From: an uncultured Thermoplasmata archaeon
Lineage (GTDB): Archaea > Thermoplasmatota > Thermoplasmata > RBG-16-68-12
Direction of reading: 5' to 3'
Assembly: GCA_963768855.1 (NCBI GenBank)
Contig: CAVYJM010000006.1
Span: 800,001-864,000, forward strand
DNA length: 64,000 nucleotides
The notes under the pieces: model-generated
Seen by the model: the letters and a program-made list of their open reading frames with translations, nothing else
What the model was told of the DNA's origin: nothing
Databases searched by the model: none
Shown: in pieces, positions 23,970 through 40,980 of the stretch
Layout of the letters: each line of letters opens with the position of its first letter
Position numbering within the stretch: the first letter of the stretch is position 1
Position numbers and translations under genes: made by a program

Positions 23970-24380
23970 TCAGCTGGCCGCCGGGCGGAACTTGTAGCCG
24001 TAGTGGATCACGCCGGCGTCGCCTTCCTGGCCGAGCTTGCGGAAGGTGGCTTGGACCCGCATCCCGATTTTGACGTCCTCGGGCTTGACGTCGATGAGCT
24101 GGCTCGTGAGCCGGACGCCTTCCTCCATCTCGATGATCGCCATCACGTAGGGCTTCTGCATGTCAAACTGGGACGGCGCGTCGTAGATCGTGGTGTACGT
24201 GACGACGGTCCCCTTCCCGCCGAGCTTGTAGGTCTGCATCTTCCCCACGGACTTGCGGCCGCAGTCCGGGCATACGGACCTCGGGGGGAAGTCGACCTTG
24301 CCGCAGTTCCCGCACTTCGTGCCGACCAGGTTGTAGCGGCTCTGGATCTCCCGCCAGAACCGGGGGATGGCCGTGCCCAT
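23970..24380 (-). CDS. DUF35 Zn-ribbon/OB-fold scaffold protein
   Basis: CGNCG..FPPRSVCPDC, GTVVTYT, YGYKF; last gene of the HMGS-thiolase cluster. Confidence 0.9.
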   Translation of the reverse strand: MGTAIPRFWREIQSRYNLVGTKCGNCGKVDFPPRSVCPDCGRKSVGKMQTYKLGGKGTVVTYTTIYDAPSQFDMQKPYVMAIIEMEEGVRLTSQLIDVKPEDVKIGMRVQATFRKLGQEGDAGVIHYGYKFRPAAS

Positions 24381-24381
24381 C

Positions 24382-25551
24382 TCAGTCCCCCCGCTCGAAG
24401 AGATGCACGACGGCCGTGGCGCCGGTGCCTCCGAGGGTGTGCGTGAGACCGTGCATCGCGCCGACGACCTGCCTCTTGCCGGCCTCCCCGCGGAGCTGCT
24501 TCACGATCTCGACCGCCTGGGCGACGCCCGTGGCGCCGACCGGCTGGCCTCGGGCCTTCAGCCCGCCCGAGGTGTTCACGGAGATCTGGCCGTTCAGCGC
24601 GGTCACCCCGTCGACCGTGGCGGGGCCGCCCTTGCCCTTCTCCACGAACCGCAGGTCCTCGATCGCGAGGATCTCGGTGATCGTGAAATTGTCGTGGACC
24701 TCGGCGACCTGGATGTCCTTGGGCTCGAGCTTCGCCTGCTGGAAGGCACGCTTCCCCGCGACGACCGTTGCGTCCATCGTGAGGAGGTCCCTGCGGTCAT
24801 GGAGGGCGAGGAAGTCGCTCGCCTGTCCGGAGCCGCGCAGGAGAATCGGGGTGTCCGTGAACTTCCGTGCCCGGTCCGCGGAGCACAGGACGACGGCCGC
24901 GGCCCCGTCGGACAGGGGCGCGCAATCGAACAGTCCGAGGGGGTCCGCGACGAGCGGGGCGTTCAGGACCGTCTCGAGGGTGATCTCCTTCTGGAACTGG
25001 GCCTCGGGGTTGAGGGAGCCGTTCTTGTGGTTCTTCACCGCGACGGCGGCGAGCTGCTCGCGCTTCGTGCCGTACTCGTACATGTGGCGTCGTGCCATCA
25101 TCGCATAGAGCCCGGCGAAGGTCGCCCCGAAGACGCTCTCCCACTCCTGGTCTGCGGTGCTCGAGAGGATCTCCGCGGCCTGAACATCCCCGACGTCGGT
25201 CATCTTCTCCGCGCCGCCGACCACGACGATGTCGTACATCCCGGAGGCGATCGCGAGGCGTGCCTGCATCAGGGCGATTGCGCCGCAGGCGCCGCCCCCT
25301 TCGACCCGCACGGTCGGGAGGTGGTGCTTCGCCAGGCCCGAGTAGTCCGCGACGAGAGCCGACACATGCTCCTGATCGATGAACTTCCCCGCGGACATGT
25401 TGCCGATGTAGATTGCGTCGATGTCCTCGGACGCGATCTTCGCGTCTTGGATGGCCTTGAGCCCCGCCTCGATTCCGAGGTCGCGGAAGGATCGGTCCCA
25501 GAGCTCCCCGAACTCGGTCTCCCCCACGCCGATGACGGCCACATCGCGCAC
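24382..25551 (-). CDS. Archaeal acetoacetyl-CoA thiolase homologue with altered catalytic motifs
   Basis: [44 protein letters not shown] 25551 has a GGGAGG SD; 25557 is an alternative start. Confidence 0.85.
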
Positions 25552-25553
25552 GT

Positions 25554-26606
25554 TCACTCCTCCCGGAGCAGGATCTTGCCGCGGTACTTCGCGTAGGTCG
25601 CGTAGTCCACGAACGCATGGTCCTCGATCATCTGTTTCACCGTCGGAGTCGCGTTCCGGCGGATCTTCGTGATCTGGTCGGTCACCGTGAGGTCGAAGCC
25701 GTCCGAGCCCGCGCCGGAGCCGTAGCCCACGGCGAAGATCCGGTCGCCCGGGTCCGCCTCGTCCAGGATGGCGCTCAGGCCGACGAGGATCGCTCCGCTG
25801 TACGTGTTGCCGATGTCCCGGACGCAGAGGCCCGCGTCGATCTGGGCGTCCTTGAACCCGAGCTGCTTCGCGGCCCGCACGGGGAACTTCCCGTTGGGCT
25901 GGTGGAAGACGGCGTAGTCGTAGTCCTGGGGCTGGCTCCCCACCTGCTTGAACAGGAGCTGGGCGCAGTTGATCACGTGCTTGAAGTACGCGGGCTCTCC
26001 CGTGAACCGTCCGCCGTGGCTCGGATACCGCTGTCCCTCGCGACGCCAGAAGTCCGGCGTGTCCGTGGTGTAGGAGACCGTGTGGCTGATGTCCGCGATC
26101 GTGTGGTCGGTCCCGATGAGCAGGGCCGCCCCGCCGGCCGAGGCGCTGTACTCGAGCGCGTCCCCCGGGGCTCCCTGGCTCGTGTCCGTGCCGACCGCCA
26201 TCCCGTACTTCATCATCTTGGAGAGCGTGAGGCCCATCGTGGTCTGGACCGCCGCGGTGCCCGCCTTGCAGGCGAACTCGAAGTCCGCCGCGGTCAGGAT
26301 GGGGGTCGAGCCGATGGCCTCCGCGACGATCGTCGCGGTCGGCTTCACGGCATACGGGTGGGACTCGCTCCCGACGTAGATCGCGCCGATGTCCGTGGGG
26401 TTGATGTCCACCTTGGCCATGCACGCCCGCGCGGCCTCGACGCTGATGGTGATCACGTCCTCGTCCGGGCCCGGGACGCTCTTCGCCTTGATGTTCAGGG
26501 ACCGGCCCATGGCCTCGCCGTCGTTGCCCCAGACCGCTCCGATGACCTTCGGCGTGATCCGGTATCTCGGAATGTAGGCTCCGTAGCTCACGATTCCTGC
26601 TTTCAT
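25554..26606 (-). CDS. mvaS: Archaeal HMG-CoA synthase
   Basis: [50 protein letters not shown]; catalytic Glu, Cys and His present. Confidence 0.92.
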
Positions 26607-27280
26607 CCCAATCGCTCCAGTCGTTCGACCAAGTCCTTCGGTTCCAGTTCCGTGCGCGCCAGGAGGATGTTGTCCATCTCCGCGAGCTTGACGGCCAGCT
26701 CGTCGATGTTCTCCGGTTGGATGTACACCACCATGGCCGGCTTGAGCGGGTGCGCCTTCACGGCGATCATGGGCGAGCGCCCGTACTTCACGCCGGTGAA
26801 GAGCAGGGCCCGCTCCGACGTGGTGCCGTAGATCTTGAGATAGTCGTTCGCGTCGAACGTCGTGATGGCCTTGATGGAATCGATGACCGTGTACCCGTTC
26901 ACGAGGCGCCGCGTGTTCATGCCGCTCGTCAGCAGCTTGCCCTCGATCTTGCGAAGGAAGTCCGCGGCCCGCATCCCGACGGGCCAGTCCCGCATGGACG
27001 GGATGACGTCGTTGTACTCTTCGAACCGCCTCGACAGCCGCCGTCCGGACCGCTGGTCGACCTCCAGGAAGGCGTCCACGAGCCGGTGGACCGTCTTGAT
27101 CCCGGGCGAGGTCCGTCGGCCCGCCTCGTAGTCGCTGATCACGCTCGGCGAGACGTGCATGTGGCGGGCGAGTTCGGTCTGGGAGATGTGGAGCTCCTCC
27201 CGCCACTTCCGCATCGTGCGGCCGGGGGACTCGGAGAGGACGATCTCACCCGCGATCTTCTCTCGGAGCGGGAGCTCCAT
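26603..27280 (-). CDS. XRE-type HTH protein typically encoded upstream of archaeal HMGS
   Basis: [47 protein letters not shown]; ATGA overlap with HMGS. Confidence 0.85.
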
Positions 27281-27382: not shown

Positions 27383-28801
27383 TCACGTCGTGCTGGCCTG
27401 GTATCCTTCCGCGATCCGACGTCGAACATCCGGGTTGAGCAGGTTCCCGAGGACCACCTTTCGGCCCGTGCGGTTCGATCCCATCATGCGCACGAAGTCC
27501 TTCAGGCCACCCTTGCTCTTCCATCCCTGGATGTGCGCGGCGTAGGCCGCTTCGGAGAGCTTCCCTAGGAGTTCCTGCGGCAATCCGTTCTCGTGGTACT
27601 CCCAGATCCGATGGTTCCGCTTCCAGTCGTCCGGAGCCACGAGGCCCTCGTCTACGAGGTCGTCCCAGATCGGAGTCCCGACAAGGCAATCGAGGATGTT
27701 CACTTGCACCGCGTGAGGCCGGAGGTCGCGGATGAAATCGATCGTCCGCTGGATGTCCTCGCGCTTCTCCACCGGGGCACCGATGATGAAGGACGTCACG
27801 ACGATCATCCCGGCGCGCTTCGCGTCCGCGACCGCTCGCTGGGCTTGGATCGCACGGATCCCCTTCTTGTAGTAATTCAGGACATGGGGCGTGGGGCTCT
27901 CCACTCCGAAGTACATCACGTCGAATCCGGCGCGCTTCATCGTCCGAAGGAGCTCGTAGGGCGCGTTGTCGACCCGCCCCTCGCAGTACAAGCGCATGCG
28001 GATCCTGCGCTCGCGGATCTGCTCGCAGATCTCCGTGACCCGGCTCTTCTTTAGGGTGAAGTTGTCGTCCACGAAGACCACGTTCTCGTAGCCTTGCTCG
28101 TGCAGGTCCTCGAGCTCGTCCACGACGTTCGTGGCGGTGCGAGCCCGCCACCGGCGCTGGGAGAAGGCAGCGCAGGAGCAGTAGGTGCAGGCGAACGGGC
28201 AGCCGCGGGACGACACGATCGTCGTGAACTTGCCGAACGTGAGCCGGATCTTCTCATGGAAGTAGCCGTACTCGAGGTCCCCGAGCATGCGCCGATCCGG
28301 CGCGGGGAGCGAGTCCAGGTCCTTGATGACGGCCAGCGGCTGGCTCACCAGGTTTCCGTCGCGCAGATAGCTGATGCCCTCGACGTCGGACGGCTCCTTG
28401 TCCTGCTCAAGGCGATCGAGGAGGTCCGGGAACGCGCGCTCGGCCTCCCCCTTGATCACGTATTCGACGAACGGATAGTCCCGCAGGATCTTCTCCGCGG
28501 CGAAGGTCGAGTGGTACCCGCCCATGACGAGCGTGGTCTCGGGCCTCGCCTCGTGGATCTTGCGGAGGGCTTCGATGGCTTCGAGGAAGGTGTGGGTCGA
28601 GCAGTTGATCCCGAAGACGTCCGGCCGCTCGCGTGCGACGTGCGCGGCGAGCTCGTCCCCGCTGAGGTTGCGGCAGAACGCGTCGAGGACCTGCACGTCC
28701 TCGCGTCGGCGGGCGCGGAGGCTCGACGCGATGTAGAGGAGGCCCAGGGGCGGCCACAGTTCGGTCGTCTTCCCCGGAGGGGTGGACAGGAGCACTTTCA
28801 T
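27383..28801 (-). CDS. Cobalamin-binding-domain radical SAM enzyme
   Basis: PPLGLLYIAS, MGGYHST, SSRGCPFACTYC (CxxxCxxC), FVDDNF, FGVES. Confidence 0.88.
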   Translation of the reverse strand: MKVLLSTPPGKTTELWPPLGLLYIASSLRARRREDVQVLDAFCRNLSGDELAAHVARERPDVFGINCSTHTFLEAIEALRKIHEARPETTLVMGGYHSTFAAEKILRDYPFVEYVIKGEAERAFPDLLDRLEQDKEPSDVEGISYLRDGNLVSQPLAVIKDLDSLPAPDRRMLGDLEYGYFHEKIRLTFGKFTTIVSSRGCPFACTYCSCAAFSQRRWRARTATNVVDELEDLHEQGYENVVFVDDNFTLKKSRVTEICEQIRERRIRMRLYCEGRVDNAPYELLRTMKRAGFDVMYFGVESPTPHVLNYYKKGIRAIQAQRAVADAKRAGMIVVTSFIIGAPVEKREDIQRTIDFIRDLRPHAVQVNILDCLVGTPIWDDLVDEGLVAPDDWKRNHRIWEYHENGLPQELLGKLSEAAYAAHIQGWKSKGGLKDFVRMMGSNRTGRKVVLGNLLNPDVRRRIAEGYQASTT

Positions 28802-28956
28802 GATCGGGGTCCGAGGTCGCCGCCGCGGCATCTCTCGCGTCCTTTGACGGAGGCGGGGCAGCCGCTGGTTGGGGCCTCTAGGCGCACAGCCGGAACCGCG
28901 GGTAAGAACACTCCGTACATTCTATGGGTGTAGTCCTGGGCAGGCGCCGCCCGTCC

Positions 28957-29364
28957 CTAGAGGCCCAGGAGGGCGTCGAGGGACCAGGCTCCCGCGCCGA
29001 GGAGGACGAGGGCGAGCGCCCCCGCCAGGTAGAGGAGGTCCATCTCCCAGCCTCCGATCAGCTTCTTGCTCAGCTTCTTCCGGGCGAAGATCGTGGTCGC
29101 GATCATCTCGAGGCCGAAGAGGACGCCCACAACCCGGGTGAGGAGCCCCGCGACCAGGACGATGCCGCCAAGGAACTCGAGGACCGTGAAGACGTAGGCG
29201 AACCCCGTGGCCCATGCCCATCCCGTGCTGGCGACCCAGGAGGCCGTCTGCCTGGGATTCTTGATCTTGGGCCAGCCATGGAGGATCATGAGGCCCCCGA
29301 CGGCGAGCCGCAACACGAGCGAGGCGAGGTCCGTCGATTGCAGGAAGCCGAATGCGCTCATCAT
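28957..29364 (-). CDS. DoxX family membrane protein
   Basis: LVLRLAVG..MILHGWPKI, EFLGG, GWEMDL, GAGAWSLD. Confidence 0.85.
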   Translation of the reverse strand: MMSAFGFLQSTDLASLVLRLAVGGLMILHGWPKIKNPRQTASWVASTGWAWATGFAYVFTVLEFLGGIVLVAGLLTRVVGVLFGLEMIATTIFARKKLSKKLIGGWEMDLLYLAGALALVLLGAGAWSLDALLGL

Positions 29365-29420
29365 TTCGGCGAAGCGTCTGGTCCCTAAATCCTTTGCGTG
29401 TCCGACGGGAACCGCAACAC

Positions 29421-30032
29421 TCAAGTCCTTTTGCGGGCCGCCCTCTCGATGCGCTCGTACTTCTCTAGGTACAGCCGCTCGCAGGAGTGGCAGCAGAAGT
29501 AGTGGTACCGGCCGTCGCGTCGCACCTTCACGGGCTCGTCGTGGATCGGCCCCTTGCACTCGAAGCAGACGAGGCTCGTCGAAAGCCGATTGGACAAGAC
29601 GGCTGCCGGCTCGTCCTTCACGCTCTTCAAGCCCACGTATGGCTGGACGTTGACGACGTCGGGGAGCGAGGAGACCTCGTGGACAATCTGCTCGACCTCT
29701 TCTCGCCGCACGGCCGTCGGGTCGACGAGGATCCATCCCGGACGGCCTGTGAGGACCCGTCGTGCCCAGCCGGATTCCGCGATCCTCGCGGCGACCGCGT
29801 CAGCCGCTTGGCGTCGCGTCTTGACGACCAGGGCCACGGTCGTCTCGTTGAGGCGCTCGGGATCCAGGACCGCCCGGTACCCTCGTACGATGCCGAGATT
29901 CTCCAGGTTCCTAAGGCGGGTACTCACCGTCGGCACGCTCACCCCGACTCGCTTTGCGACGGTCCGCAGGGAGGCTCGGGCGTCCTCCTGAAGACAACGA
30001 AGAATCGCGGCGTCCGTGGCGTCGAGCTTCAA
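29421..30032 (-). CDS. Lrp/AsnC-type regulator with C-terminal TRASH metal-binding domain (CopR-like)
   Basis: LDATD..IL..LQEDAR.S...VAKRVGVS.PTV..RL, then CFEC...YFCCHSC; TTG start inferred about 25 nt below a TATA. Confidence 0.8.
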   Translation of the reverse strand: MKLDATDAAILRCLQEDARASLRTVAKRVGVSVPTVSTRLRNLENLGIVRGYRAVLDPERLNETTVALVVKTRRQAADAVAARIAESGWARRVLTGRPGWILVDPTAVRREEVEQIVHEVSSLPDVVNVQPYVGLKSVKDEPAAVLSNRLSTSLVCFECKGPIHDEPVKVRRDGRYHYFCCHSCERLYLEKYERIERAARKRT

Positions 30033-30134
30033 CGTCGAGGGATGGCTTCGGTGGCCCTTAAAGTTCCTTTGCATCCGAGGCCGCACAATCTTATACCCGT
30101 GGCTCGGGCTTAAGCGGACCCTGCGTGGGGAGCG

Positions 30135-31529
30135 GTGTCGTCGGTGACGATGGTCCAGGAGCTCGCGGAGTTCGTCGTCGCCAGTTCGTTCGACGATCTC
30201 TCGGACGCCGCCGTCGACGCCCTGAAGATCCGGATGCTCGACGGTCTCGGGTGCGCAATCGGGGCCCTCGATGGCCAACCCATCCGCGCCCTGCGCGACC
30301 ATCTCGCCGACTTCGGCGGACGTCCGCTGTGCACGACGATCGGCGGGCCGAAGAACGCGCCAGACCGCGCCGCGCTGATCAACGGAGCGCTCGTCCGGTA
30401 CCTTGACTTCAATGATAGCTACCTCGCGAAGGGGGAGACGTGCCACCCGAGCGACAACCTCGGTGCGATGCTCGCCGCGGCGGAATATGCGAAGGGAAGC
30501 GGGATGGACCTCCTCGTCTCCCTCGCGGTGGCCTACCAGGTCCAGTGCCGCCTGAGCGACGTGGCTCCCGTGCGGGCGAAGGGCTTCGACCACACGACCC
30601 AGGGATCGTACGCCGTCGCCGCTGGCGCGTCGAAGGCCCTCGGGCTTGACGCAGTCCGGACCGCGAACGCGATCGCGATCAGCGGGACCGCATTCAACGC
30701 GCTGCGGGTGACCCGCACCGGCACGCTCTCGAACTGGAAGGGCCTCGCCTACCCGAACACCGGATTCTGCGGCACGCACGCGACGTTCCTCGCCAAGCAC
30801 GGGATCACCGGACCCCTGGAGGTCTTCGAGGGGAACAAGGGGTTCATGGACGCGATCGCCGGGAGGTTCGCCATCGACTGGTCCGCGGAGGATCTCGAGC
30901 GCGTCACGCGCACGATCGTCAAGCGCTTCAACGCGGAGGTCCACTCCCAGTCCGCGACGGAGGGCATCCTCGAGCTCCAGGCGGAAGCGGGCTTCGCGGG
31001 AAGCGACGTCGACCGGATCGAGATTGACATCTTCAACGTGGCCTACGACATCATCGGAGGAGGCGAGGAAGGGTCGAAGTACGGGGTCCGGACGAAGGAG
31101 GAGGCCGACCACAGCCTCCAGTACATCGTCTCCGCCGCGATCCTGGACGGCAACGTCCTGCCTTCTGCGTACGCTCCCGCGCGGATCCTGCGCGAGGACA
31201 TCCAGCAGCTCCACCGCAAGGTCGTCGTCCGCCCGAAGAAGGAGTACAGCGACCGCTTCCCGGGCGAGATGCCGTGCCACCTGACGGTCCACCTGAAGGA
31301 CGGCCGCATCCTGGAGAAGGAGAAGCGGGACTACGAGGGCTTCGTCACGCGCCCGATGACCCGGGCGACGGCAGAGGCGAAGTTCCACGCCCTCGCCTCG
31401 CCCTTCGCCTCGGCGGCCCTCCGGAAGCAGATCACCGAGTCCGTGTCGAATCTGGAGAACCTTCAAGCGTCGGACTTGCTCAAGCTCCTCGCGAAGATAC
31501 CGAAGCGTGGCGGGGGGCGGTCGTCATGA
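30135..31529 (+). CDS. MmgE/PrpD family protein
   Basis: RMLDGLGC, NGALVRYLDFND, CHPSDN, WKG, ADHSLQY. Confidence 0.88.
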   Translation: MSSVTMVQELAEFVVASSFDDLSDAAVDALKIRMLDGLGCAIGALDGQPIRALRDHLADFGGRPLCTTIGGPKNAPDRAALINGALVRYLDFNDSYLAKGETCHPSDNLGAMLAAAEYAKGSGMDLLVSLAVAYQVQCRLSDVAPVRAKGFDHTTQGSYAVAAGASKALGLDAVRTANAIAISGTAFNALRVTRTGTLSNWKGLAYPNTGFCGTHATFLAKHGITGPLEVFEGNKGFMDAIAGRFAIDWSAEDLERVTRTIVKRFNAEVHSQSATEGILELQAEAGFAGSDVDRIEIDIFNVAYDIIGGGEEGSKYGVRTKEEADHSLQYIVSAAILDGNVLPSAYAPARILREDIQQLHRKVVVRPKKEYSDRFPGEMPCHLTVHLKDGRILEKEKRDYEGFVTRPMTRATAEAKFHALASPFASAALRKQITESVSNLENLQASDLLKLLAKIPKRGGGRSS

Positions 31530-32380
31530 GTCCCAAGACAACCTCGAAGGCATGGCAGGAGCAGGAGCGCGCGTTCAGCTGGGTCAAGCGGAACGATCGG
31601 CAGGGGAAACCGCGGACGAAAGGCCTCACGGAGATCCGGGGACCGTACTACTCCGTCATGGGGCCGCGGTACCTCGAGGACGTCCTCGAGACCGCCGGAG
31701 ACTACGTCGACTCGCTGAAGTTCGCTGCAGGTTCGTTCAGCGTGATCCCGAAGAAGTCGCTGCGGCAGCTCCTCGACCTCGCTCACTCTTATGACGTTCA
31801 GGCGTCGACCGGTGGCTGGATCGAGTACGTCCTCACGCAGGGCAAGAAAGCCGTGGACCGCTACATCGAGGAGGTCAAGTCAGTCGGTTTCGACATCCTT
31901 GAGATCTCCGCAGGTTTCATCTCCATCCCGATTGACGACTGGGTCGGGCTCGTGGAGCGGGTGAAAGACGAGGGCCTCAAGCCCAAGCCTGAGGTCGGGA
32001 TCCAGTGGGGCGCCGGCGGCGAGACGAGCGTCGAGGAACTCGAGGAGGCCGGGGTCCGCGATCCGGCACGCGCCATCCACGCCGCGAAGCGATTCCTCGA
32101 GGCGGGGGCCTACCTCATCATGATCGAGTCCGAAGGGATCACCGAGAACGTGAAGGCATGGCGAACCGACGTCGTGTCCCAGATCACGGATGCCCTCGGC
32201 ACGGAGAAGGTCATGTTCGAGGCCGCGGACCCCCAGGTCTTCACGTGGTATGTCCAGAACTACGGGGCGGACGTGAACCTCTTCGTGGACCACAGCCAGA
32301 TCGTCCAGCTCGAGATCGTGCGGCGCGGAATCTGGGGCATGGCGGCAAACTGGGGCCGTATCGTCACGTACAAGCCATGA
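31526..32380 (+). CDS. Phosphosulfolactate synthase (ComA)-family TIM-barrel protein, divergent subfamily
   Basis: GLTEIRGPYY, DSLKFAAGS, TGGWIE, EISAGF, VMFEAAD, YGADVNLFVDH; ATGA overlap. Confidence 0.85.
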   Translation: MSPKTTSKAWQEQERAFSWVKRNDRQGKPRTKGLTEIRGPYYSVMGPRYLEDVLETAGDYVDSLKFAAGSFSVIPKKSLRQLLDLAHSYDVQASTGGWIEYVLTQGKKAVDRYIEEVKSVGFDILEISAGFISIPIDDWVGLVERVKDEGLKPKPEVGIQWGAGGETSVEELEEAGVRDPARAIHAAKRFLEAGAYLIMIESEGITENVKAWRTDVVSQITDALGTEKVMFEAADPQVFTWYVQNYGADVNLFVDHSQIVQLEIVRRGIWGMAANWGRIVTYKP

Positions 32381-32397
32381 GCCCAGGAGACGAGAGC

Positions 32398-33636
32398 ATG
32401 GACCGCGCGAAGTACGTCATCGTGGGCGGGGGCCTTGCGGGCTTCAACGCGATCCCCGCAATCCGCGAGCGGGACCCGGAGGGCCGCATCGTCCTCGTCA
32501 CCGATGAGAAGGAGCGGCCCTACGACCGCGTGCCCCTTTCCAAGAAGTACCTGCAGGGCACTCTCTCCCGCGAAGGCGTGTTCCTCCGTCCGAAGGAGTT
32601 CTTCGACGAGAACCAGGTCGAACTGACAACGAGCCGAAGAGCCACGGCACTCGACGTGCAGGCGAAGACGATTTCACTGGACGACGGCCGGGGACTGCGC
32701 TACGAGAAGCTGCTGCTGGCCACGGGCGGTCAACCGCGTCACCTGCCCCTTCCTGGCTCGGAGCTGCCCGGGATTCGCTACCTCCGGACCCTCGAGGACA
32801 GCGACGTCCTCAAGGAGGATATGGCGGGAGCCAAGCGGCTCGTCGTGGTCGGTGGCGGATTCATCGGATGCGAGGTCGCAGCTGCGGGCGTCGTGAAAGG
32901 CCTCGACGCCACGATTATTGAGGTGGGTCCCTACCTGCTGAACATGGCCTTCGATGAGCCCACCGGCCGCTGGGTGACGGACTACCTCACCGCCAAGGGG
33001 ATGAAGGTCCGATGTGGGGAACGGGCTTCCCGGTTCCTGTCGCGGGACGGCCGCCTGACGGGTGTCGAGACCTCGGGCGGAGCGGCGATTCCCGCGGACC
33101 TCGTCGTCGTCGGCGTGGGCCTCCTGCCGAACACGGATCTCGCAAAGGCTGCCGGACTCCAGGTGGACAACGGGATCGTGGTCAACGAGCGGCTGGAGAC
33201 CAGCGCCCCGGACGTGTATGCCGCGGGTGACGTGGCCCGGTTCTACTCGACCGTCTTCGAGCGGCGGCTGCGAGTCGAGCACTACGACGTCGCGGTGCGG
33301 CACGGGAAAGTCGCGGGCGCGAACATGGCTGGCGCGGGCGTGGCCTTCACGGAGCTTCCCTACTTCTTCTCGGACATGTTCGAGCTCCGGATTCACGTGC
33401 ATGGCACGCTGAGCGACCACGACCGAGTCGTCCTGCGCGGGGAGCGGAAGCTGACGGACCAGGGGGGATTCATCCAGTTCTATCTCAAAGGCCATCGCAT
33501 CATGGCGTACCTCGGCGTCAACCGGAAGCTCAAGGAGGAGCGTGCGGCCCAGAAACTCATCGCGTCGCGCCGCCCTTTCGAAGATACACGTCCTCTGGAG
33601 GATCCGAGCGTCGATCTCGCCGCGCTGGCCGGTTAG
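32398..33636 (+). CDS. FAD/NAD(P) ferredoxin-reductase-like oxidoreductase
   Basis: GGGLAG, PYDRVPLSK, GGGFIGCE, YAAGDVA, PYFFSD; alternative start ATG 32377 overlaps the upstream stop. Confidence 0.88.
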   Translation: MDRAKYVIVGGGLAGFNAIPAIRERDPEGRIVLVTDEKERPYDRVPLSKKYLQGTLSREGVFLRPKEFFDENQVELTTSRRATALDVQAKTISLDDGRGLRYEKLLLATGGQPRHLPLPGSELPGIRYLRTLEDSDVLKEDMAGAKRLVVVGGGFIGCEVAAAGVVKGLDATIIEVGPYLLNMAFDEPTGRWVTDYLTAKGMKVRCGERASRFLSRDGRLTGVETSGGAAIPADLVVVGVGLLPNTDLAKAAGLQVDNGIVVNERLETSAPDVYAAGDVARFYSTVFERRLRVEHYDVAVRHGKVAGANMAGAGVAFTELPYFFSDMFELRIHVHGTLSDHDRVVLRGERKLTDQGGFIQFYLKGHRIMAYLGVNRKLKEERAAQKLIASRRPFEDTRPLEDPSVDLAALAG

Positions 33637-33658: not shown

Positions 33659-33664
33659 CTTATA
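33659..33664 (+). promoter_or_regulatory. TATA box of tRNA-Pro
   Basis: cttata about 30 nt upstream of the mature tRNA 5' end. Confidence 0.6.
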
Positions 33665-33694
33665 CGGAAGCCTCCCTTACGCGAAGCCGCCTCC

Positions 33695-33769
33695 GGGTCC
33701 GTGGGGTAGCTTGGTCTATCCTTGGTGGTTCGGGACCACTAGACTCCGGTTCAAATCCGGACGGACCCA
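33695..33769 (+). tRNA. tRNA-Pro (anticodon CGG), intronless, no encoded CCA
   Basis: Acceptor stem GGGTCCG/CGGACCC; D-arm GGGT-AGCTTGGTCT-ATCC; anticodon arm GGTGG-TTCGGGA-CCACT; T-arm TCCGG-TTCAAAT-CCGGA. Confidence 0.95.
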
Positions 33770-33860: not shown

Positions 33861-34505
33861 ATGAAGATTGGCATCCTCGGCAGTGGCGACGTGGGACAGA
33901 CCCTGGGCCTCGGCTTCGCGAAGCGGGGTCACCAGGTGACGATCGGCTCGCGGACGCCGGGCTCGGGGAAACTGAAGACTTGGACCCGCAAAGCCGGACC
34001 GTCGGCGAACGCGGCGAGCTTCGCAGAGGCCGCGATGGGAGAGGTCCTCGTGCTCGCTTGCCTCGGCAGCGCCGTGGATGACGTGATCAAGGCGGTCGGT
34101 CCGAAGAGCTTCGCGGGGAAGATCCTGATCGACGCGACGAACCCACTGGACTTCTCGAAGGGCATGCCTCCCGGGTTGTCCTTCGGCCTGACGGACTCCC
34201 TGGGGGAGCGGGTGCAGGAGCGCCTGCCTAAGGCGAAGGTCGTGAAGTGCTTCAACACGGTTCCGAGCCTCCTCATGGTGGACCCGAAGCTTCGGAGTGG
34301 GCAAGCCGAGATGCTCATCTGCGGAAACGATGCAGATGCGAAGGCGCGGGTGACCAAGATCCTGAAGGAGCTCGGATGGACGGGTGCCATCGACGTGGGC
34401 AAGATCGATGGATCGCGATGGATGGAAGCCCTCGTCCCGCTGTGGGTCCGCGTCAGCAACAGCCTCGGCACCTGGAACCAATGCTTTCAGATCGCCCGCG
34501 CATGA
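33861..34505 (+). CDS. F420-dependent NADP oxidoreductase family protein
   Basis: MKIGILGSGDVG, IGSR, IDATNPL, VVKCFNT, ICGND. Confidence 0.85.
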   Translation: MKIGILGSGDVGQTLGLGFAKRGHQVTIGSRTPGSGKLKTWTRKAGPSANAASFAEAAMGEVLVLACLGSAVDDVIKAVGPKSFAGKILIDATNPLDFSKGMPPGLSFGLTDSLGERVQERLPKAKVVKCFNTVPSLLMVDPKLRSGQAEMLICGNDADAKARVTKILKELGWTGAIDVGKIDGSRWMEALVPLWVRVSNSLGTWNQCFQIARA

Positions 34506-35292: not shown

Positions 35293-36954
35293 ATGGCGAC
35301 CCCTGCGTCCGATGTGTCTCCCGAGCCTGCCCGTGCGCCGACACCGCCGCCGGCGCCCCGGCGTCGCCCGTGGAAGTTGATTGCGGTCATCGTGGTGGTG
35401 ATCGTAGCCCTATCCGCCATCGCGGTCTATGTGGTCCTGTACAGCCCCAAGCCCGCAAGTGTGGTGGTCTACGACACGAACTCGGAGATGGTCACGTTGG
35501 ACCCGAGTTCGGAGTTCTCGAACTCGATCCTGATCCTGCCGAACGTGTATGAGACGCTGACCCACTGGAATCCGGCAACGAATTCCGCGGATCCGCTTCT
35601 CGCTTTGAGCTGGAACCATGCCTCAGACGGCATGACGTGGAATTTCACGCTCCGTCAGGGCGTCACCTTCCACGATGGCACCCCGTTCAACGCGACCGCG
35701 GTGAAGTACTCCCTCCTGCGCACGATTGGCTTCGCGCAGGGGGCGGCCTACATCTGGAGCGCACTCGGCGACTTGACGCAGGCTGAACAGAACATCGAAC
35801 TGACGGGGACCTACGCAGTCGAGTTCCACCTGCTCTACCCCGCGGCGATGGACAAGATCGCCTCCTCCGGATACGGAGCGTACATCTTCTCACCGAACAC
35901 GCCGGGCGCGAACTACACGCTCCAGCAAGCCTGGTTCAATGCGGGGCATGACTCGGGATCGGGCCCGTACTCGATCAACACGGCCCAGTACACGAGCACG
36001 TACTCGGTCCTGGACAAGTACGCCAACTACTGGGGCGGCTGGCAGGCCGGTCAGTTTGACCACGCCATCATCAAGCGCGTCGCCGATGCCATCCAACGCG
36101 AAAAGGATGTGACGAGCGGGGCGGCTGACATTACCGAGGACGTGCCCCTGAGCGATCTTCCGACCCTCCAGAACAACTCGGCCGTGAGCGTCCTGGAGAC
36201 CCCGAGCTATCGCGCCCTCTACGCCTTCTTCAACATGCAGAAGGATCCGACAAGCAACCTGTCCTTCCGCTTGGCACTTGCGTACTCGCTTCCGTACGAT
36301 TACGTGGCCGGGACCGTCACCGAAGGCCTGGGAACACAGTCGGTCGGAGTGATCCCCGCCACGATGTGGGGGCATGACAGCACCCTGCCCCACTACAGCT
36401 TCAACATGGCCCAGGCCGCGCAGTACCTCGCCCAGTCCCCCCACCCGACGGGCCACGTCACGCTGACGTACACCTATGTGACCGGAGACCCGTACGAGCA
36501 GAAGATGGCCGAGGCCTGGAAGACGCAGCTCGCGACTCTGAACATCACGCTGAACCTTCAGCCCATGGAATGGACGGCGCAGTGGGCGCTGGCGCAGGGG
36601 CCCCCATCCGCGGCGCAGGACATCTTCGTGATGTACTGGTGGCCCACGTACGTGACCCCGTACGACTTCCTGTTCAACATGTTCAGCTACGCCAGCTACC
36701 AGGTCTACAACCTCGGCTACTACAACAACTCCGCGTTCGACGACTCGATCAACACAGCCTTCACGGAGGAAGCCACGAGTCCGTCGACGGCGCTGCAAGA
36801 CTACCGGACGGCTCAGCTGATGCTGTACACCGACCTGCCGGGGATGGGAGTCGTGGACCTGAAGAACCTCTACCTTGAACGGGCGAACCTGAAGGGCTTC
36901 ACGGACAATCCGGCGTATCCGCTGGTGGTCTTCTTCTACCAGCTGTCGCGCTAG
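35293..36954 (+). CDS. Family 5 (Dpp/Opp/Nik) ABC substrate-binding protein with N-terminal TM anchor
   Basis: LDPS, NVYETL, PLLALSW, FTLRQGVTFHDGTPFNA.AVKYS, GSGPY. Confidence 0.9.
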   Translation: MATPASDVSPEPARAPTPPPAPRRRPWKLIAVIVVVIVALSAIAVYVVLYSPKPASVVVYDTNSEMVTLDPSSEFSNSILILPNVYETLTHWNPATNSADPLLALSWNHASDGMTWNFTLRQGVTFHDGTPFNATAVKYSLLRTIGFAQGAAYIWSALGDLTQAEQNIELTGTYAVEFHLLYPAAMDKIASSGYGAYIFSPNTPGANYTLQQAWFNAGHDSGSGPYSINTAQYTSTYSVLDKYANYWGGWQAGQFDHAIIKRVADAIQREKDVTSGAADITEDVPLSDLPTLQNNSAVSVLETPSYRALYAFFNMQKDPTSNLSFRLALAYSLPYDYVAGTVTEGLGTQSVGVIPATMWGHDSTLPHYSFNMAQAAQYLAQSPHPTGHVTLTYTYVTGDPYEQKMAEAWKTQLATLNITLNLQPMEWTAQWALAQGPPSAAQDIFVMYWWPTYVTPYDFLFNMFSYASYQVYNLGYYNNSAFDDSINTAFTEEATSPSTALQDYRTAQLMLYTDLPGMGVVDLKNLYLERANLKGFTDNPAYPLVVFFYQLSR

Positions 36955-36958
36955 CGGC

Positions 36959-36976
36959 GCGGGCCTTCGGGCCCGC
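36959..36976 (+). promoter_or_regulatory. Seven-bp hairpin with cUUCGg tetraloop between SBP and permease genes
   Basis: gcgggcc-ttcg-ggcccgc, immediately followed by the AGGAGGAGG SD. Confidence 0.6.
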
Positions 36977-36989
36977 CAGGAGGAGGACG

Positions 36990-38063
36990 GTGGTCGAGGG
37001 GGCCCGGACGTCCGGCACCGCAGGGGGAGCGTTCCTCCGGTTCCTGATACGCCGAGCGATCCTCGCCCTCGTGGTGGTCCTCGGGGTCATCGTGATCACC
37101 TTCTTCCTGTCCCGAGTCGTGCCCGCGAACGTCGCAGGTCTTTGGGCCGGAGGCACGCATGCGACGGCCGCGGAGTTGGCCCAAGCCCGCACTGAACTCC
37201 ACCTCGATGACTCCCTTCCGGTCCAGTTCTGGTATTACCTCTCCGGGCTCGTACAAGGCAATCTGGGCACGGACCTGGTCACGAAGCACCCGGTCAGCCA
37301 AGATATCGCCGCCTACCTACCCGCAACGCTGGAGCTCATTTCATCCGCTATCCTCTTAGCCCTCCTCATTGGAATCCCTCTCGGGGTGTTTGCAGGGGTC
37401 AAGCGAGGCCGGTGGCCCGACCACCTGACCCGGTTCCTTGCCGTTGGGGGGGTGGCTCTTCCATCCTTCTGGTTCGCTATCGTGTTACAAGTGATCTTCG
37501 TTGAAGGACTCCACGTCCTTCCGTCGAGCGGTCGGTTCACCGACTCGCTGGCCATTACCTCGCCGATCCGGACCATTACCGGCTTCATGACGATCGATTC
37601 GTTGCTGCAGGCGAACCTGCCGCGCTTTGTCGATGCGATCGGGCACTTGATTCTGCCCTCGCTCACCCTCGCGCTGTATCCCATCGGGCTGGTTGCCCGG
37701 ATGGTCCGCACGATGATGGTCGAGGTGCTCGGCGAGAACTACATCCGGACGGCGAAGGCTTACGGCTTGCCGGCCCGCCTCATCCACTACCGCTACGCGT
37801 TGAAGAACGCGATTTCACCCGCCATCGTGGCCGTGGGCTTGTCGTTCGCCTACGAGCTGACGGGAGCCTTCCTCGTGGAGAACATTTTCTCGTGGAACGG
37901 GATTGGCCAGTATGCGTTCCTTGCCGTGGAGAACTTCGACTATCCCGCGGTCGTGGGTACTGCGATCGTGGTCGCAATCTTCTACGTCATCGTGAACTTG
38001 GTCGTCGACATGATCCAATCGTTCCTGGATCCACGAGTGGTCCTGACGAAGTCGGAGGGCTGA
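36990..38063 (+). CDS. Peptide/nickel ABC permease (DppB-like)
   Basis: FLIRR, LDDSLPVQF, PATLEL, ENYIRTAKAYGL (EAA loop), VENIFSWNGIG. Confidence 0.9.
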   Translation: MVEGARTSGTAGGAFLRFLIRRAILALVVVLGVIVITFFLSRVVPANVAGLWAGGTHATAAELAQARTELHLDDSLPVQFWYYLSGLVQGNLGTDLVTKHPVSQDIAAYLPATLELISSAILLALLIGIPLGVFAGVKRGRWPDHLTRFLAVGGVALPSFWFAIVLQVIFVEGLHVLPSSGRFTDSLAITSPIRTITGFMTIDSLLQANLPRFVDAIGHLILPSLTLALYPIGLVARMVRTMMVEVLGENYIRTAKAYGLPARLIHYRYALKNAISPAIVAVGLSFAYELTGAFLVENIFSWNGIGQYAFLAVENFDYPAVVGTAIVVAIFYVIVNLVVDMIQSFLDPRVVLTKSEG

Positions 38064-38066
38064 GCG

Positions 38067-39023
38067 ATGGCCGCGGAGTCGCCGCTTCATTCAGGTGCCG
38101 ACGCGTTCTCTCCGGCACTCCGTCGAACTGTCGACGCAGCCCTCGCGGGAATCCGCTCCCTGTGGCGGATTGTGAGGAGGGATCCGCTAGCGCTCGTCGG
38201 ACTGGCAATCCTGACGGTTTTCGTGGTGGCCTCACTTCTGGCCGGGTTCCTTCCCTCTCTGATACCTTACTCGGCGCAAGGGCAGGGCGCTGTGAACCTG
38301 AACTCCGCGGACAAGTTGCTTGCCCCAAGTGGGACGCACTGGCTCGGCACAGATGAAGCCGGCAGAGACCTCTTCGCACGACTCTGGTTCGGCGCGGGTC
38401 TCGCCCTTTGGGTGGGGCTCGCCACGGTCCTGATCTCCTTCCCCGTGGGAGTGCTCCTCGGCGTGGTCGCGGGCTATATGCGGGGCGCCGTCGAGGAGGT
38501 GATCATGCGGGTCACCGACATGTTCCTCGCGTTCCCGACGATTCTGCTCGCCATCGTCATCGCCGCGACCCTGAACCGCGGAACGACCGCGGAGATCATC
38601 GCGATGGCCGTCAGCTTCTGGCCCTGGTACACCCGCCTCGTGCATTCGCAGGTCCAACACGTGCGGTCCCAGCCATTCGTCGAATCCGCAGTGGTCCTCG
38701 GGCTCCCGCGCCGCCGGATCATCCTTCGCCATCTCCTCCCGAACTCACTGACGTCGGCCTCGATCCAGGCGACGATGGACATCGGGTCCGCCATCCTGAT
38801 TGCCGCCGCTCTGAGCTGGATTGGACTCGGTCCACAGCCCGGCGCGCCTGACTGGGGCGTCATGCTCCAGTCCGCTTACTCGGAGGGAAGCTTCATCACC
38901 TTCTGGTGGTACTCGACCTTTGTCGGGCTCGCCCTCTTTCTCGTTGTACTCGCGTTCAACCTTTTGGGCGACAGCTTCCGCGACGCGCTCGATCCCAAGC
39001 TCCGCAGGAGGCGCATGTTCTGA
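38067..39023 (+). CDS. Peptide/nickel ABC permease (DppC-like)
   Basis: HWLGTDEAGRD, MRVTDMFLAFP, PFVESA..LG, RHLLPN, FNLLGDSFRDALDP. Confidence 0.9.
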   Translation: MAAESPLHSGADAFSPALRRTVDAALAGIRSLWRIVRRDPLALVGLAILTVFVVASLLAGFLPSLIPYSAQGQGAVNLNSADKLLAPSGTHWLGTDEAGRDLFARLWFGAGLALWVGLATVLISFPVGVLLGVVAGYMRGAVEEVIMRVTDMFLAFPTILLAIVIAATLNRGTTAEIIAMAVSFWPWYTRLVHSQVQHVRSQPFVESAVVLGLPRRRIILRHLLPNSLTSASIQATMDIGSAILIAAALSWIGLGPQPGAPDWGVMLQSAYSEGSFITFWWYSTFVGLALFLVVLAFNLLGDSFRDALDPKLRRRRMF

Positions 39024-39994
39024 ACGCCCTGCTTGACGTGAAGGATCTCAGCTTGGATTTCGAGACGGAGATGGGAACCGCCAAGGTACTCGATCGCGTG
39101 ACCTTCTCCATCGGGGAAGGAGAGGTCTTCGGGCTCGTCGGCGAGACGGGCTGTGGCAAGACGGTCACCGCGCTCACGGTTCTACGACTTCTCCCGTCCA
39201 ATGCCCGGATCCGGACCGGCACGGTGAAGTTCCTGGGAGAGGAGTTGCTCTCCAAGACCGACGCCGAGATGGAGCAACTCCGCGGCTCGAAGATCTCCAT
39301 GGTGTTCCAGGATCCCGCGACGAGTCTCAACCCGGTGTTCAGCGTGGGCGAGCAGGTCACCCGGGTCGTAAGGATTCACGAGGACGTCGAGAAGGACGTC
39401 GCGGAGAAGCGGGCGCTCGGCCTGTTCAAGCGGGTGGGTCTTCCCGACCCTGAAAACGTCCTCCACAGTTACCCGCACGAACTCAGCGGCGGGATGCAGC
39501 AGCGCGTCATGATCTCGATGGCCCTTGCGTGCCGTCCGAAACTATTGATCGCAGATGAGCCGACCACCGCCGTGGACGTGACCATTCAAGCTCAGATCCT
39601 CGACTTGCTGCTCGAGCTTCAACGGGAGTTCCGGCTCTCGGTTCTCTTGATCACCCACAATCTGGGGATAGTCGCAGAGACCTGTCAACGGGTCGGCGTA
39701 ATGTACGCGGGGACGCTCGCGGAGGTCGCCGCGACGAAGGATCTGTTCCGTGAGCCTCTGCATCCATACACCCAGCGGCTCCTCAAGTCGCTCCCGCGGC
39801 CCGATGCCCGAGGCGAGCCCCTCGCCTCAATCCCGGGCACCGTGCCGAGCCTGATCAACCCTCCGTCCGGCTGCCGATACCACCCGCGTTGCGAGTTCGC
39901 GATGAAAAGCTGCTCCGTCCGGAGACCCGCGATCCTCGAGCACCGCCCGAACCATCGCGCTGCCTGTCTCCTGTATGAGGGGGTGAAGGAGTGA
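39020..39994 (+). CDS. Peptide ABC ATPase (DppD-like); probable CTG start
   Basis: [29 protein letters not shown]-terminal GCRYHPRC; AGGAGG lies 8 nt before CTG 39020. Confidence 0.88.
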
Positions 39995-40980
39995 GTCTCG
40001 TGCGCGTCGAAGGCCTTCAGAAGCTCTTCCCTGTGCGGATTGGTTTTGCGGGTCAGGCGCGGGTCCACGCCGTCGACGGGGTCGACCTCGAAATCGAGGA
40101 AGGCGAGACCTTCGGGCTCGTGGGCGAGAGCGGCTCCGGCAAGAGCACCCTGGGGCGCTGCATCCTGCGGCTCGTCAATCCGACCGCCGGACGCATCTGG
40201 TTCGAGGAGCTGGACCTGACCGCGCTGCGCGGAGAATCCCTGAGGAAGACACGCCTCCGGTTGCAGATTGTCTTCCAGAACCCGATGGCCTCCCTCGACC
40301 CGAGGATGCGGGTCGGACAGACGATCGCCGAACCGCTGCGCGTGCATCGTGGGGCGAGTCCCTCTGAGGCGCGGGTGAAGGTCGAGGAGCTCCTTCGTCG
40401 TGTGGGCCTACACTCCGAAGTCGCGGGTAAGTACCCGCACGAGCTGAGCGGGGGCCAGTGCCAGCGCATCGCGGTGGCGCGGGCTCTCGCGCTCGAACCG
40501 AAGTTCATCGTCCTCGACGAACCGACCTCCTCCCTCGATGTCTCCGTGCAAGCCCAGATCGTGAACCTCCTCAAGGAGTTGCAGCGGGACCTCGGGCTGA
40601 CCTACCTCTTCATCACGCATGATCTTGCCCTCGTGGGCTACCTCGCAGACCGCGTGGGTGTGATGTATCTTGGGAAGCTCGTCGAAGTCGGAGGAGCGGT
40701 CGACGTCCTGCAGCACGGGCAGCATCCGTACACCCTCGCCCTGCGGAACGCGGTCCCCCTGCCGGATCCTGAGCGGGAACGGAAGCACATCCCTCTGAAG
40801 GGCGAGATTCCGTCTGCGCTCGAGCCGCCCTCCGGTTGCCGTTTCCGCACCCGGTGTCCGTGGGCCCAGAAACGGTGCGCGGACGAGGAGCCGCCCCTCC
40901 GCGAGGTCGGCCCGACCCGCGTGGCGTGTCACTTCGTTGAAGAGATTCAGACGCAATTGGGGAAGGGGAGTGCGACATGA
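39991..40980 (+). CDS. Peptide ABC ATPase (DppF-like)
   Basis: [36 protein letters not shown]; GTGA overlap. Confidence 0.9.
   Translation: MSLVRVEGLQKLFPVRIGFAGQARVHAVDGVDLEIEEGETFGLVGESGSGKSTLGRCILRLVNPTAGRIWFEELDLTALRGESLRKTRLRLQIVFQNPMASLDPRMRVGQTIAEPLRVHRGASPSEARVKVEELLRRVGLHSEVAGKYPHELSGGQCQRIAVARALALEPKFIVLDEPTSSLDVSVQAQIVNLLKELQRDLGLTYLFITHDLALVGYLADRVGVMYLGKLVEVGGAVDVLQHGQHPYTLALRNAVPLPDPERERKHIPLKGEIPSALEPPSGCRFRTRCPWAQKRCADEEPPLREVGPTRVACHFVEEIQTQLGKGSAT

Follow-up and report, generated by a model that had tools for sequence, protein, structure and literature searches.

A PrpD-like gene and an HSA32-type ComA-fold gene form a conserved pair in a Thermoplasmata archaeon and in many phyla of bacteria and archaea

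The locus described here lies in a 64,000-nucleotide (nt) stretch of DNA, which we call the window, from an uncultured Thermoplasmata archaeon (contig CAVYJM010000006.1, positions 800,001 to 864,000), and consists of three genes on the + strand: one of the MmgE/PrpD family, one for a ComA-fold protein of the type of the plant protein HEAT-STRESS-ASSOCIATED 32 (HSA32), and one for a flavoprotein reductase. The PrpD-like gene (P0001, 30150..31529, 459 amino acids (aa)) was assigned from its Pfam domains, and its start was placed at the ATG at 30150, with which the N-termini of its homologs agree; the GTG at 30135 gives the longest open reading frame (ORF). The HSA32-type gene (P0002, 31526..32380, 284 aa), assigned from Pfam PF02679 and a fold model, follows directly, and its start overlaps the stop of the PrpD-like gene in an ATGA at 31526-31529. 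The third gene (P0003, 32398..33636, 412 aa) encodes an FAD- and NAD(P)H-linked ferredoxin- or rubredoxin-reductase-like protein according to its Pfam and profile matches. A preliminary description of this DNA, made from the letters alone, had reported three co-oriented genes with an ATGA overlap, and these stand, since each ORF is present and carries Pfam domains. The near-overlap that it saw between the second and third genes is an artefact of the longest ORF of P0003, which starts at GTG 32005; the likely start is ATG 32398, which has a GGAG ahead of it and leaves 17 nt after the stop of the ComA-like gene.

The first two of these genes form a co-inherited, translationally coupled two-enzyme module, which is widespread and horizontally mobile and of which the window holds one copy. 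We surveyed relatives of the ComA-like protein with a degenerate-peptide scan, using one genome per species, and read the genomic neighborhoods of the best 80. The scan returned at least 584 loci with 63-71% identity, distributed over Chloroflexota, Acidobacteriota, Thermodesulfobacteriota, Nitrospirota, Planctomycetota, Chlamydiota, Verrucomicrobiota, Gemmatimonadota, Actinomycetota, Bacillota, Bathyarchaeota and Thermoplasmata. A PrpD ortholog (57-87% identity) lies directly 5' and on the same strand in about 70 of the 80 best loci, in more than 10 phyla, and five of the 80 have no adjacent PrpD gene despite enough flanking sequence. The reciprocal scan, started from the PrpD side, found the ComA-like gene directly 3' in 64 of 74 testable loci, and in the window's own family the pair is adjacent in all four genomes that have the ComA-like gene. 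Because the arrangement recurs at this frequency in independent loci from both sides, the adjacency is far beyond chance, and chance adjacency is effectively excluded. The pairing, which the preliminary description had made part of a candidate pathway, is systematic rather than sporadic. The pairwise identity matrices of the two proteins are also correlated (Mantel r 0.59, with none of 2000 permutations as high).

The linkage has exceptions and its distribution is patchy. At least two genomes, Terriglobia SMAG_U8880 and Manganitrophaceae GW715_bin.13, contain both genes unlinked, and the more distant branches are looser: Nitrososphaeraceae carry the ComA-like gene by itself, in one uncultured lineage it converges with a PrpD gene, and in another its partners are a DHDPS-family gene and an FAD-linked oxidase. 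The pair occurs in 9 of the 401 Actinomycetota sampled, and within Thermoplasmata it is confined to the window's own family plus one distant homolog. When all flanking ORFs were clustered and the neighbors tallied, no third conserved gene family was found around the pair. Open frames of 780 aa in two Actinomycetota, considered as a possible PrpD-ComA fusion, proved to be shadow frames over separate genes. A complex prediction for the two proteins from 30-row alignments gave a score of 0.00, which says nothing about binding either way.

The PrpD-like protein has both domains of its family, PF03972 (MmgE_PrpD_N, 234 bits) and PF19305 (MmgE_PrpD_C, 135 bits), and shares dehydratase-type motifs with 2-methylcitrate dehydratase PrpD (EC 4.2.1.79; 1SZQ, 5MUX). 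Its best profile matches are 2-methylcitrate dehydratases (5mux and 1szq, E 3e-49 to 1e-47), followed by cis-aconitate decarboxylases (CADs) and IDS epimerase, and a protein atlas search returned only generic MmgE/PrpD clusters. The motifs common to the solved PrpDs (LDFND...HPSDN, GFDH, K197, K258 and NAExHSQ) are all present, whereas CAD differs there. In HMMER alignments with human and mouse CAD, human H159 and H277, which we take to be the active-site histidines of CAD, align with D147 and E263 of P0001, as in PrpD, where these positions fall in GFDH and NAExHSQ. In contrast to PrpD itself, P0001 reaches none of the NCBIfam PrpD equivalogs (136, 121 and 102 bits against cut-offs of 950, 575 and 458), has no prpB/prpC context, and belongs to a group in which a ComA-fold gene is linked in about 90% of loci. 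The PrpD member of the pair is not an ordinary methylcitrate dehydratase.

The second protein matches PF02679 with 272 bits. Its AlphaFold model (pLDDT, the predicted local distance difference test, 83.6) is closest to a ComA-derived chain (Z 26.2, root-mean-square deviation 2.3 A, 234 residues aligned), and because other TIM barrels reach a Z of only about 15, the modelled fold is that of ComA. P0002 shares this Pfam family, the TIM-barrel fold and a set of retained residues with ComA, XcbB1 and YitD (EC 4.4.1.19; PDB 1QWG, 1U83), but it differs from them in its clade, in its motifs, in its PrpD-like partner and in a genome in which no ComB, ComD or MCR was found. Against the ComA equivalog TIGR03849 it scores 95.9 bits, under the cut-off of 280, and its identity to canonical ComAs from the same class is no more than 28-30%. 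Its closest named relative is plant HSA32, with 40% identity (E 2.7e-53) to the date palm (Phoenix) protein that bears this name at NCBI. A maximum-likelihood tree sets the canonical ComAs apart as a clade on a 100/100 branch, while the plant HSA32 sequences fall with or inside the PrpD-paired clade on a long branch whose exact place is unsure, and the archaeal paired sequences are nested among bacterial ones.

For the comparison of motifs we aligned P0002 with 1qwg and six canonical ComAs of the class and assessed invariance over 30 orthologs. The canonical EVGKK is changed to PEVGIQ and the canonical E(S/G)RE to ESEGITE in the clade of P0002, so that Lys-Lys becomes I159/Q160 and Arg becomes E203; I159 and E203 are invariant, as are the other residues of ESEGITE, whereas Q160 is nearly so. 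The residues K65, E100, E126, S128, E156, E201, E232 and N251 are kept from the canonical enzymes, and the clade has a further invariant motif, FVDHSQ, that is new to it. The lost Lys was reportedly proposed by Wise et al. in 2003 to be the general acid, and we take the lost Arg to be anion-binding. The ComA-like member is not a canonical phosphosulfolactate synthase or coenzyme M enzyme. That it adds sulfite to phosphoenolpyruvate (PEP), the reaction which the preliminary description gave for ComA, is doubtful, because the protein is HSA32-type and is without the Lys-Lys and Arg that are conserved in canonical ComAs. The canonical ComAs of the class (L096-L101) are 318-367 aa long and have an extension of about 70 aa past the barrel at the C-terminus, which is winged-helix-like and might represent a ComA-regulator fusion.

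Plant HSA32 and the clade of P0002 have the same extra loop after strand 5 (a loop described in bioRxiv 10.1101/2024.10.15.618377). The plant protein (P0159) reads PQFAVKF and IDADDLC where P0002 has PEVGIQ and IESEGITE (residues 156-160 and 199-207), and it may have lost or changed the ancestral active site. Because the plant protein has diverged at these two motifs, its function need not equal the prokaryotic one.

The host genome is a metagenome-assembled genome of 2.87 Mb in 24 contigs, with a completeness of 93.6% and a contamination of 7.7%. Close homologs carry the names Thermoplasmata or Methanobacteriota archaeon, and the host is a non-methanogenic Thermoplasmata archaeon and not a bacterium, which corrects an earlier reading. 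It has one PrpD-family gene and one ComA-family gene. Genome-wide searches of this 93.6% complete genome found no ComB (PF04029), ComD (TIGR03845) or McrA; XcbC-E were not searched for. A single Ldh_2-family (ComC-family) gene is present and unlinked to the pair. The sole PEP-mutase-family gene is about 70 kb away, also unlinked, and reaches 94 bits against the prpB cut-off of 354, and a type II citrate synthase gene on another contig is recognized only by the generic model for the type II (2-methyl)citrate synthase subfamily. The preliminary description had noted that prpB/prpC and comB-E are missing from the window, and the genome as a whole agrees with it, having no ComB or ComD, no convincing prpB, and only a generic citrate synthase elsewhere. 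Its view that the locus fits neither the methylcitrate cycle nor canonical coenzyme M synthesis holds. Aconitase-family genes are retained in the host, and the idea that the pair stands in for a missing aconitase was thus ruled out. A second citrate synthase gene outside the window (G000:C6:49551-50654) matches Pfam in four consecutive pieces in different frames, and is a frameshifted pseudogene or an assembly error. A search of sequencing runs found no RNA runs for the host, only DNA metagenomes from wetland and sediment with shares of at most 0.40.

The third gene of the unit has a different history from the pair. P0003 matches Pyr_redox_2 (220 bits) and Reductase_C (50 bits) and is alike over its full length, in both domains, to the putidaredoxin, rubredoxin and ferredoxin-NAD(P)+ reductases (PDB 1Q1R, 3FG2, 3EF6), with E values from 1e-76, for putidaredoxin reductase 1q1r, to 1e-63. 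It differs from these in that no redox-partner gene or oxygenase was identified beside it, although no search aimed at ferredoxin or rubredoxin was made. Only its nearest relatives (G128, L010 and L011) have an ortholog of P0003 after the pair, and there is no counterpart at that position in three other members of the same family (G100, G135 and G170). The reductase gene was added beside the pair in the last ancestor shared by a few close species, and is a lineage-specific accessory outside the conserved unit. The proposed coupling to NAD(P)H through this reductase is accordingly not a feature of the conserved unit, as the reductase stands beside the pair only in those relatives and flavoproteins of other subtypes do so in about 10-15% of loci.

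Among the likely co-transcribed neighbors in 64 loci, flavin/NAD(P)H oxidoreductases of these other subtypes (AIF_C, NDH-2 type) are the commonest, with 10, followed by GTP cyclohydrolase I (5), HAD phosphatase (4), CMD/AhpD-like proteins (3) and IclR (3). GTP cyclohydrolase I with HPPK is found near the pair in 5-10 loci, and an FCSD-like flavoprotein adjoins it in G170. In the Chloroflexia loci (L020, L022, L029, L055, L060, L068 and L074) the pair lies between an AIF-like flavin reductase and a set of pterin genes (GTP cyclohydrolase I, a 242-aa protein and HPPK), and some Acidobacteriota likewise have GTP cyclohydrolase I after the pair. A DUF488 gene lies within 8 kb of the pair, on either side, in 19 of the 80 loci and at least six phyla; these neighbors belong to the Pfam 'inactive DUF488-N3 subclade' (e.g. 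L040:8925-9299, L087:3397-3750 and L020:4943-5302).

The limits of the unit in the window could be read in part from the sequence. The heptamer CTTATAC at 30090..30096 (+ strand), 54-60 nt 5' of the PrpD-like start, is a candidate archaeal TATA box, and the same heptamer occurs at 33659-33665, 30-36 nt 5' of a tRNA-Pro(CGG) gene (33695-33769, + strand) that lies directly 3' of the reductase gene and bounds the unit downstream. The distances are promoter-like, and CTTATAC may act as a promoter element of both the PrpD-like gene and the tRNA. A scan of the locus for sigma-70 promoters and terminators was uninformative, the host being archaeal.

The genes 5' of the pair are on the minus strand. 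At 23970-27206, genes for a DUF35/ChsH2-like OB-fold protein, for a thiolase and for an HMG-CoA-synthase-like protein stand in series and correspond to the acetoacetyl-CoA thiolase/HMGCS/DUF35 trio of the archaeal mevalonate pathway; Pfam matches are lacking in the long + strand ORFs over this trio, which are probably shadows. The stretch 27383-29736 holds a gene for a B12-binding radical SAM protein, with best NCBIfam matches to BchE, ApyD and HpnJ that are all under cut-off, and adjoining it, divergent from the PrpD-like gene, the gene for a DoxX-family membrane protein that is extended by about 130 aa at its N-terminus. The minus-strand genes also include a helix-turn-helix regulator gene. 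Downstream on the + strand are a homolog of NpdG-like NADPH-dependent F420 reductase (33861-34505, 84 bits against a cut-off of 150) and a five-gene Opp/Dpp-type ABC transporter (35293-40980). Both the upstream and the downstream genes look functionally unrelated to the three-gene unit.

The same architecture, by published annotation, is found in Corynebacterium glutamicum, where cg2796 (MmgE/PrpD family) and cg2797 (putative phosphosulfolactate synthase) form one operon, and cg2797 is reported to be 57% identical to a Rubrobacter 'ComA' (PMC1382209, PMC2627906, PMC2807442). A Rubrobacter ortholog belongs to the PrpD-paired clade of our survey. Going by the published description, the archaeal pair appears to be the same pair as cg2796-cg2797, from which the archaeal locus differs by the extra reductase gene. 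A DtxR operator lies 18 bp 5' of cg2796-cg2797, expression rises about 1610-fold in a dtxR mutant, and DtxR regulons typically hold iron-acquisition genes (PMC1382209); the presence of such an operator is not a test that carries over directly to an archaeal locus. Acid pH induces the operon (PMC2627906, PMC2807442), and so does indole, with log2 changes of 6.9 and 6.3 for proteins that were called unknown (PMC7764795). In a heme-stress dataset cg2796 is 11-fold up while the iron enzymes of the RipA regulon, katA, sdhCAB and narGH, are down, and leuC stands in the same RipA table (PMC9491836). The preliminary description had presented the system as undescribed. This holds for the pairing, as our literature search found no paper that treats PrpD plus phosphosulfolactate synthase as a module, and fails for the operon, since cg2796-cg2797 has been published (PMC1382209, PMC7764795).

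We tentatively prefer, while giving it less than even weight, the interpretation that the two enzymes act one after the other, as carbon-heteroatom lyases that need no cofactor, on a single small polyanionic acid, as a bypass that is independent of iron-sulfur (Fe-S) clusters and induced by stress or iron limitation, to which the reductase was appended in this lineage. The PrpD-like enzyme would take a proton from the carbon alpha to a carboxylate and eliminate the beta substituent, in the manner of a dehydration, and the ComA-fold enzyme would carry out a metal-stabilized conjugate addition onto the resulting enoate, or the reverse elimination. The net outcome would be an isomerization or substitution that normally requires an Fe-S dehydratase; the module would be switched on by stress or iron limitation, when it could work without Fe-S clusters, and we prefer such a role over sulfonate or coenzyme M synthesis. 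A two-step addition/elimination route, which the preliminary description had proposed, is the most economical reading. We favor the bypass because the C. glutamicum pair is strongly derepressed without DtxR, and the preference is a weak one, drawn from that DtxR control, from the heat induction of plant HSA32 and from the redox and stress genes that recur near the pair (the flavin reductases in 10 of 64 loci, the CMD/AhpD-like proteins, and DoxX in the window).

Several points weigh against this proposal. We know of no member of the pair for which the substrate, product or activity is known. Because the host keeps aconitase-family genes, nothing is visibly missing for a bypass to replace. HAD phosphatases stand beside the pair in 4-5 loci, and for this reason a phosphorylated, PEP-derived intermediate would fit instead. 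The orthology with cg2796-cg2797 is taken from published annotations and the reported 57% identity, and an exact search of genome contigs for the published cg2796 DtxR box gave four unrelated matches. Sequences 5' of the pair in 10 other Actinomycetota loci gave only background matches to a DtxR/IdeR-like box (9-10 of 19 positions mismatched), and iron control may therefore be specific to Corynebacterium. Finally, deletion and overexpression of cg2796-cg2797 gave no phenotype with indole, the sole condition tested (PMC7764795).

A narrower form of the bypass, which we consider doubtful, would have the pair replace, without Fe-S clusters, an isomerase of the aconitase type (aconitase, isopropylmalate isomerase or homoaconitate isomerase). 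The PrpD-like enzyme would dehydrate the hydroxy-acid and the HSA32-type barrel would re-add water at the adjacent carbon by way of a metal-stabilized enolate, with the module turned on when Fe-S enzymes fail under iron limitation or under oxidative, acid or heat stress; if true, this would give the ancestor of plant HSA32 an enzymatic meaning. A sulfonate pathway is the strongest of the competing explanations, although still unlikely in our estimate. Here the ComA-like enzyme would add sulfite or another sulfur nucleophile to PEP or an enoate and the PrpD-like enzyme would process the sulfonated acid, for example by an elimination analogous to that of XcbC in bacterial coenzyme M synthesis, for sulfite detoxification or to make a sulfolactate-like solute. 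The strong Pfam match and the ComA fold agree with it, as do the acidic and Lys skeleton kept in the barrel (K65, E100, E126, E156, E201, E232, N251), the sulfur and thiol neighbors of some genomes (DoxX in the window, the FCSD-like flavoprotein in G170) and the unlinked Ldh_2 gene of the host. Set against these are the exchange of Lys-Lys and Arg for Ile-Gln and Glu in invariant or nearly invariant columns, a score far under the ComA equivalog cut-off, and the failure to find ComB or ComD in the host; moreover, the neighbor tally shows no recurrent sulfonate transporter or sulfite-generating gene, and a PrpD-type abstraction of the alpha proton from phosphosulfolactate would expel sulfite and not phosphate. 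Ranking after the sulfonate pathway, and rather improbable, is the synthesis of a small specialized metabolite from PEP or a tricarboxylic acid cycle intermediate, for instance a polycarboxylate that binds iron, a compatible solute or the precursor of a cofactor, with variable tailoring by phosphatase, flavin reductase or pterin enzymes. The iron-acquisition genes typical of DtxR regulons (PMC1382209), the lineage-variable accessories (HAD phosphatase, flavin reductases, GTP cyclohydrolase I plus HPPK, DUF488) and the patchy, cassette-like distribution in Actinomycetota and Thermoplasmata would suit such a product, but the neighbors of the pair include no recurrent exporter, importer or receptor gene, each accessory is limited to about a quarter of loci at most, and an identity of 60-70% between phyla points to a substrate that is common and very constrained.

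The two remaining explanations are far weaker. The HSA32-type protein could have a non-catalytic, chaperone-linked role like the one proposed for plant HSA32, which stabilizes HSP101, and the PrpD-like protein would then be its partner. The plant protein does group with the paired prokaryotic clade, and its molecular function is stated as unclear, its only known role, a non-enzymatic one, being in heat-acclimation memory with HSP101 (bioRxiv 10.1101/2024.10.15.618377). We regard this as very unlikely for the prokaryotic pair, in which the charged barrel cluster (ESEGITE, K65, E100, E126, E232, H256) is invariant, as is typical of an active site, while the divergence of the plant protein at ESEGITE and PEVGIQ means that the plant role may be derived. 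To our knowledge HSA32 has no PrpD partner in plants. An ordinary 2-methylcitrate dehydratase of the methylcitrate cycle beside an unrelated ComA gene could draw on the PrpD-family motifs and on the citrate synthase subfamily and PEP-mutase-family genes elsewhere in the genome, but the matches to the PrpD equivalogs reach 101-136 bits where 458-950 are required, the PEP-mutase-family protein has 94 bits where prpB requires 354, and the pairing is kept in about 90% of loci across phyla. It is scarcely credible, and the linkage statistics effectively refute it.

The window itself is a modest result, one more member of the module with a lineage-specific reductase. What is new here is the reciprocal linkage count, the co-divergence test, the tally of flavin-reductase neighbors, the tRNA boundary and the link to the DtxR regulon. 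Together these concern two familiar enzyme folds that occur as a fixed pair in hundreds of species, spread over 10 or more bacterial and archaeal phyla, and that are encoded, in the one organism with data, by one of the most strongly iron-regulated operons (cg2796-cg2797). Among prokaryotic proteins, that of the barrel is the nearest relative of plant HSA32, a heat-memory factor whose biochemistry has awaited an explanation since 2006. Knowledge of the substrate would correct the widespread misannotation of these proteins as "phosphosulfolactate synthase / CoM biosynthesis protein A" in non-methanogens, would possibly reveal a stress-induced metabolic bypass, and would give research on plant HSA32 a testable enzymatic ancestry.

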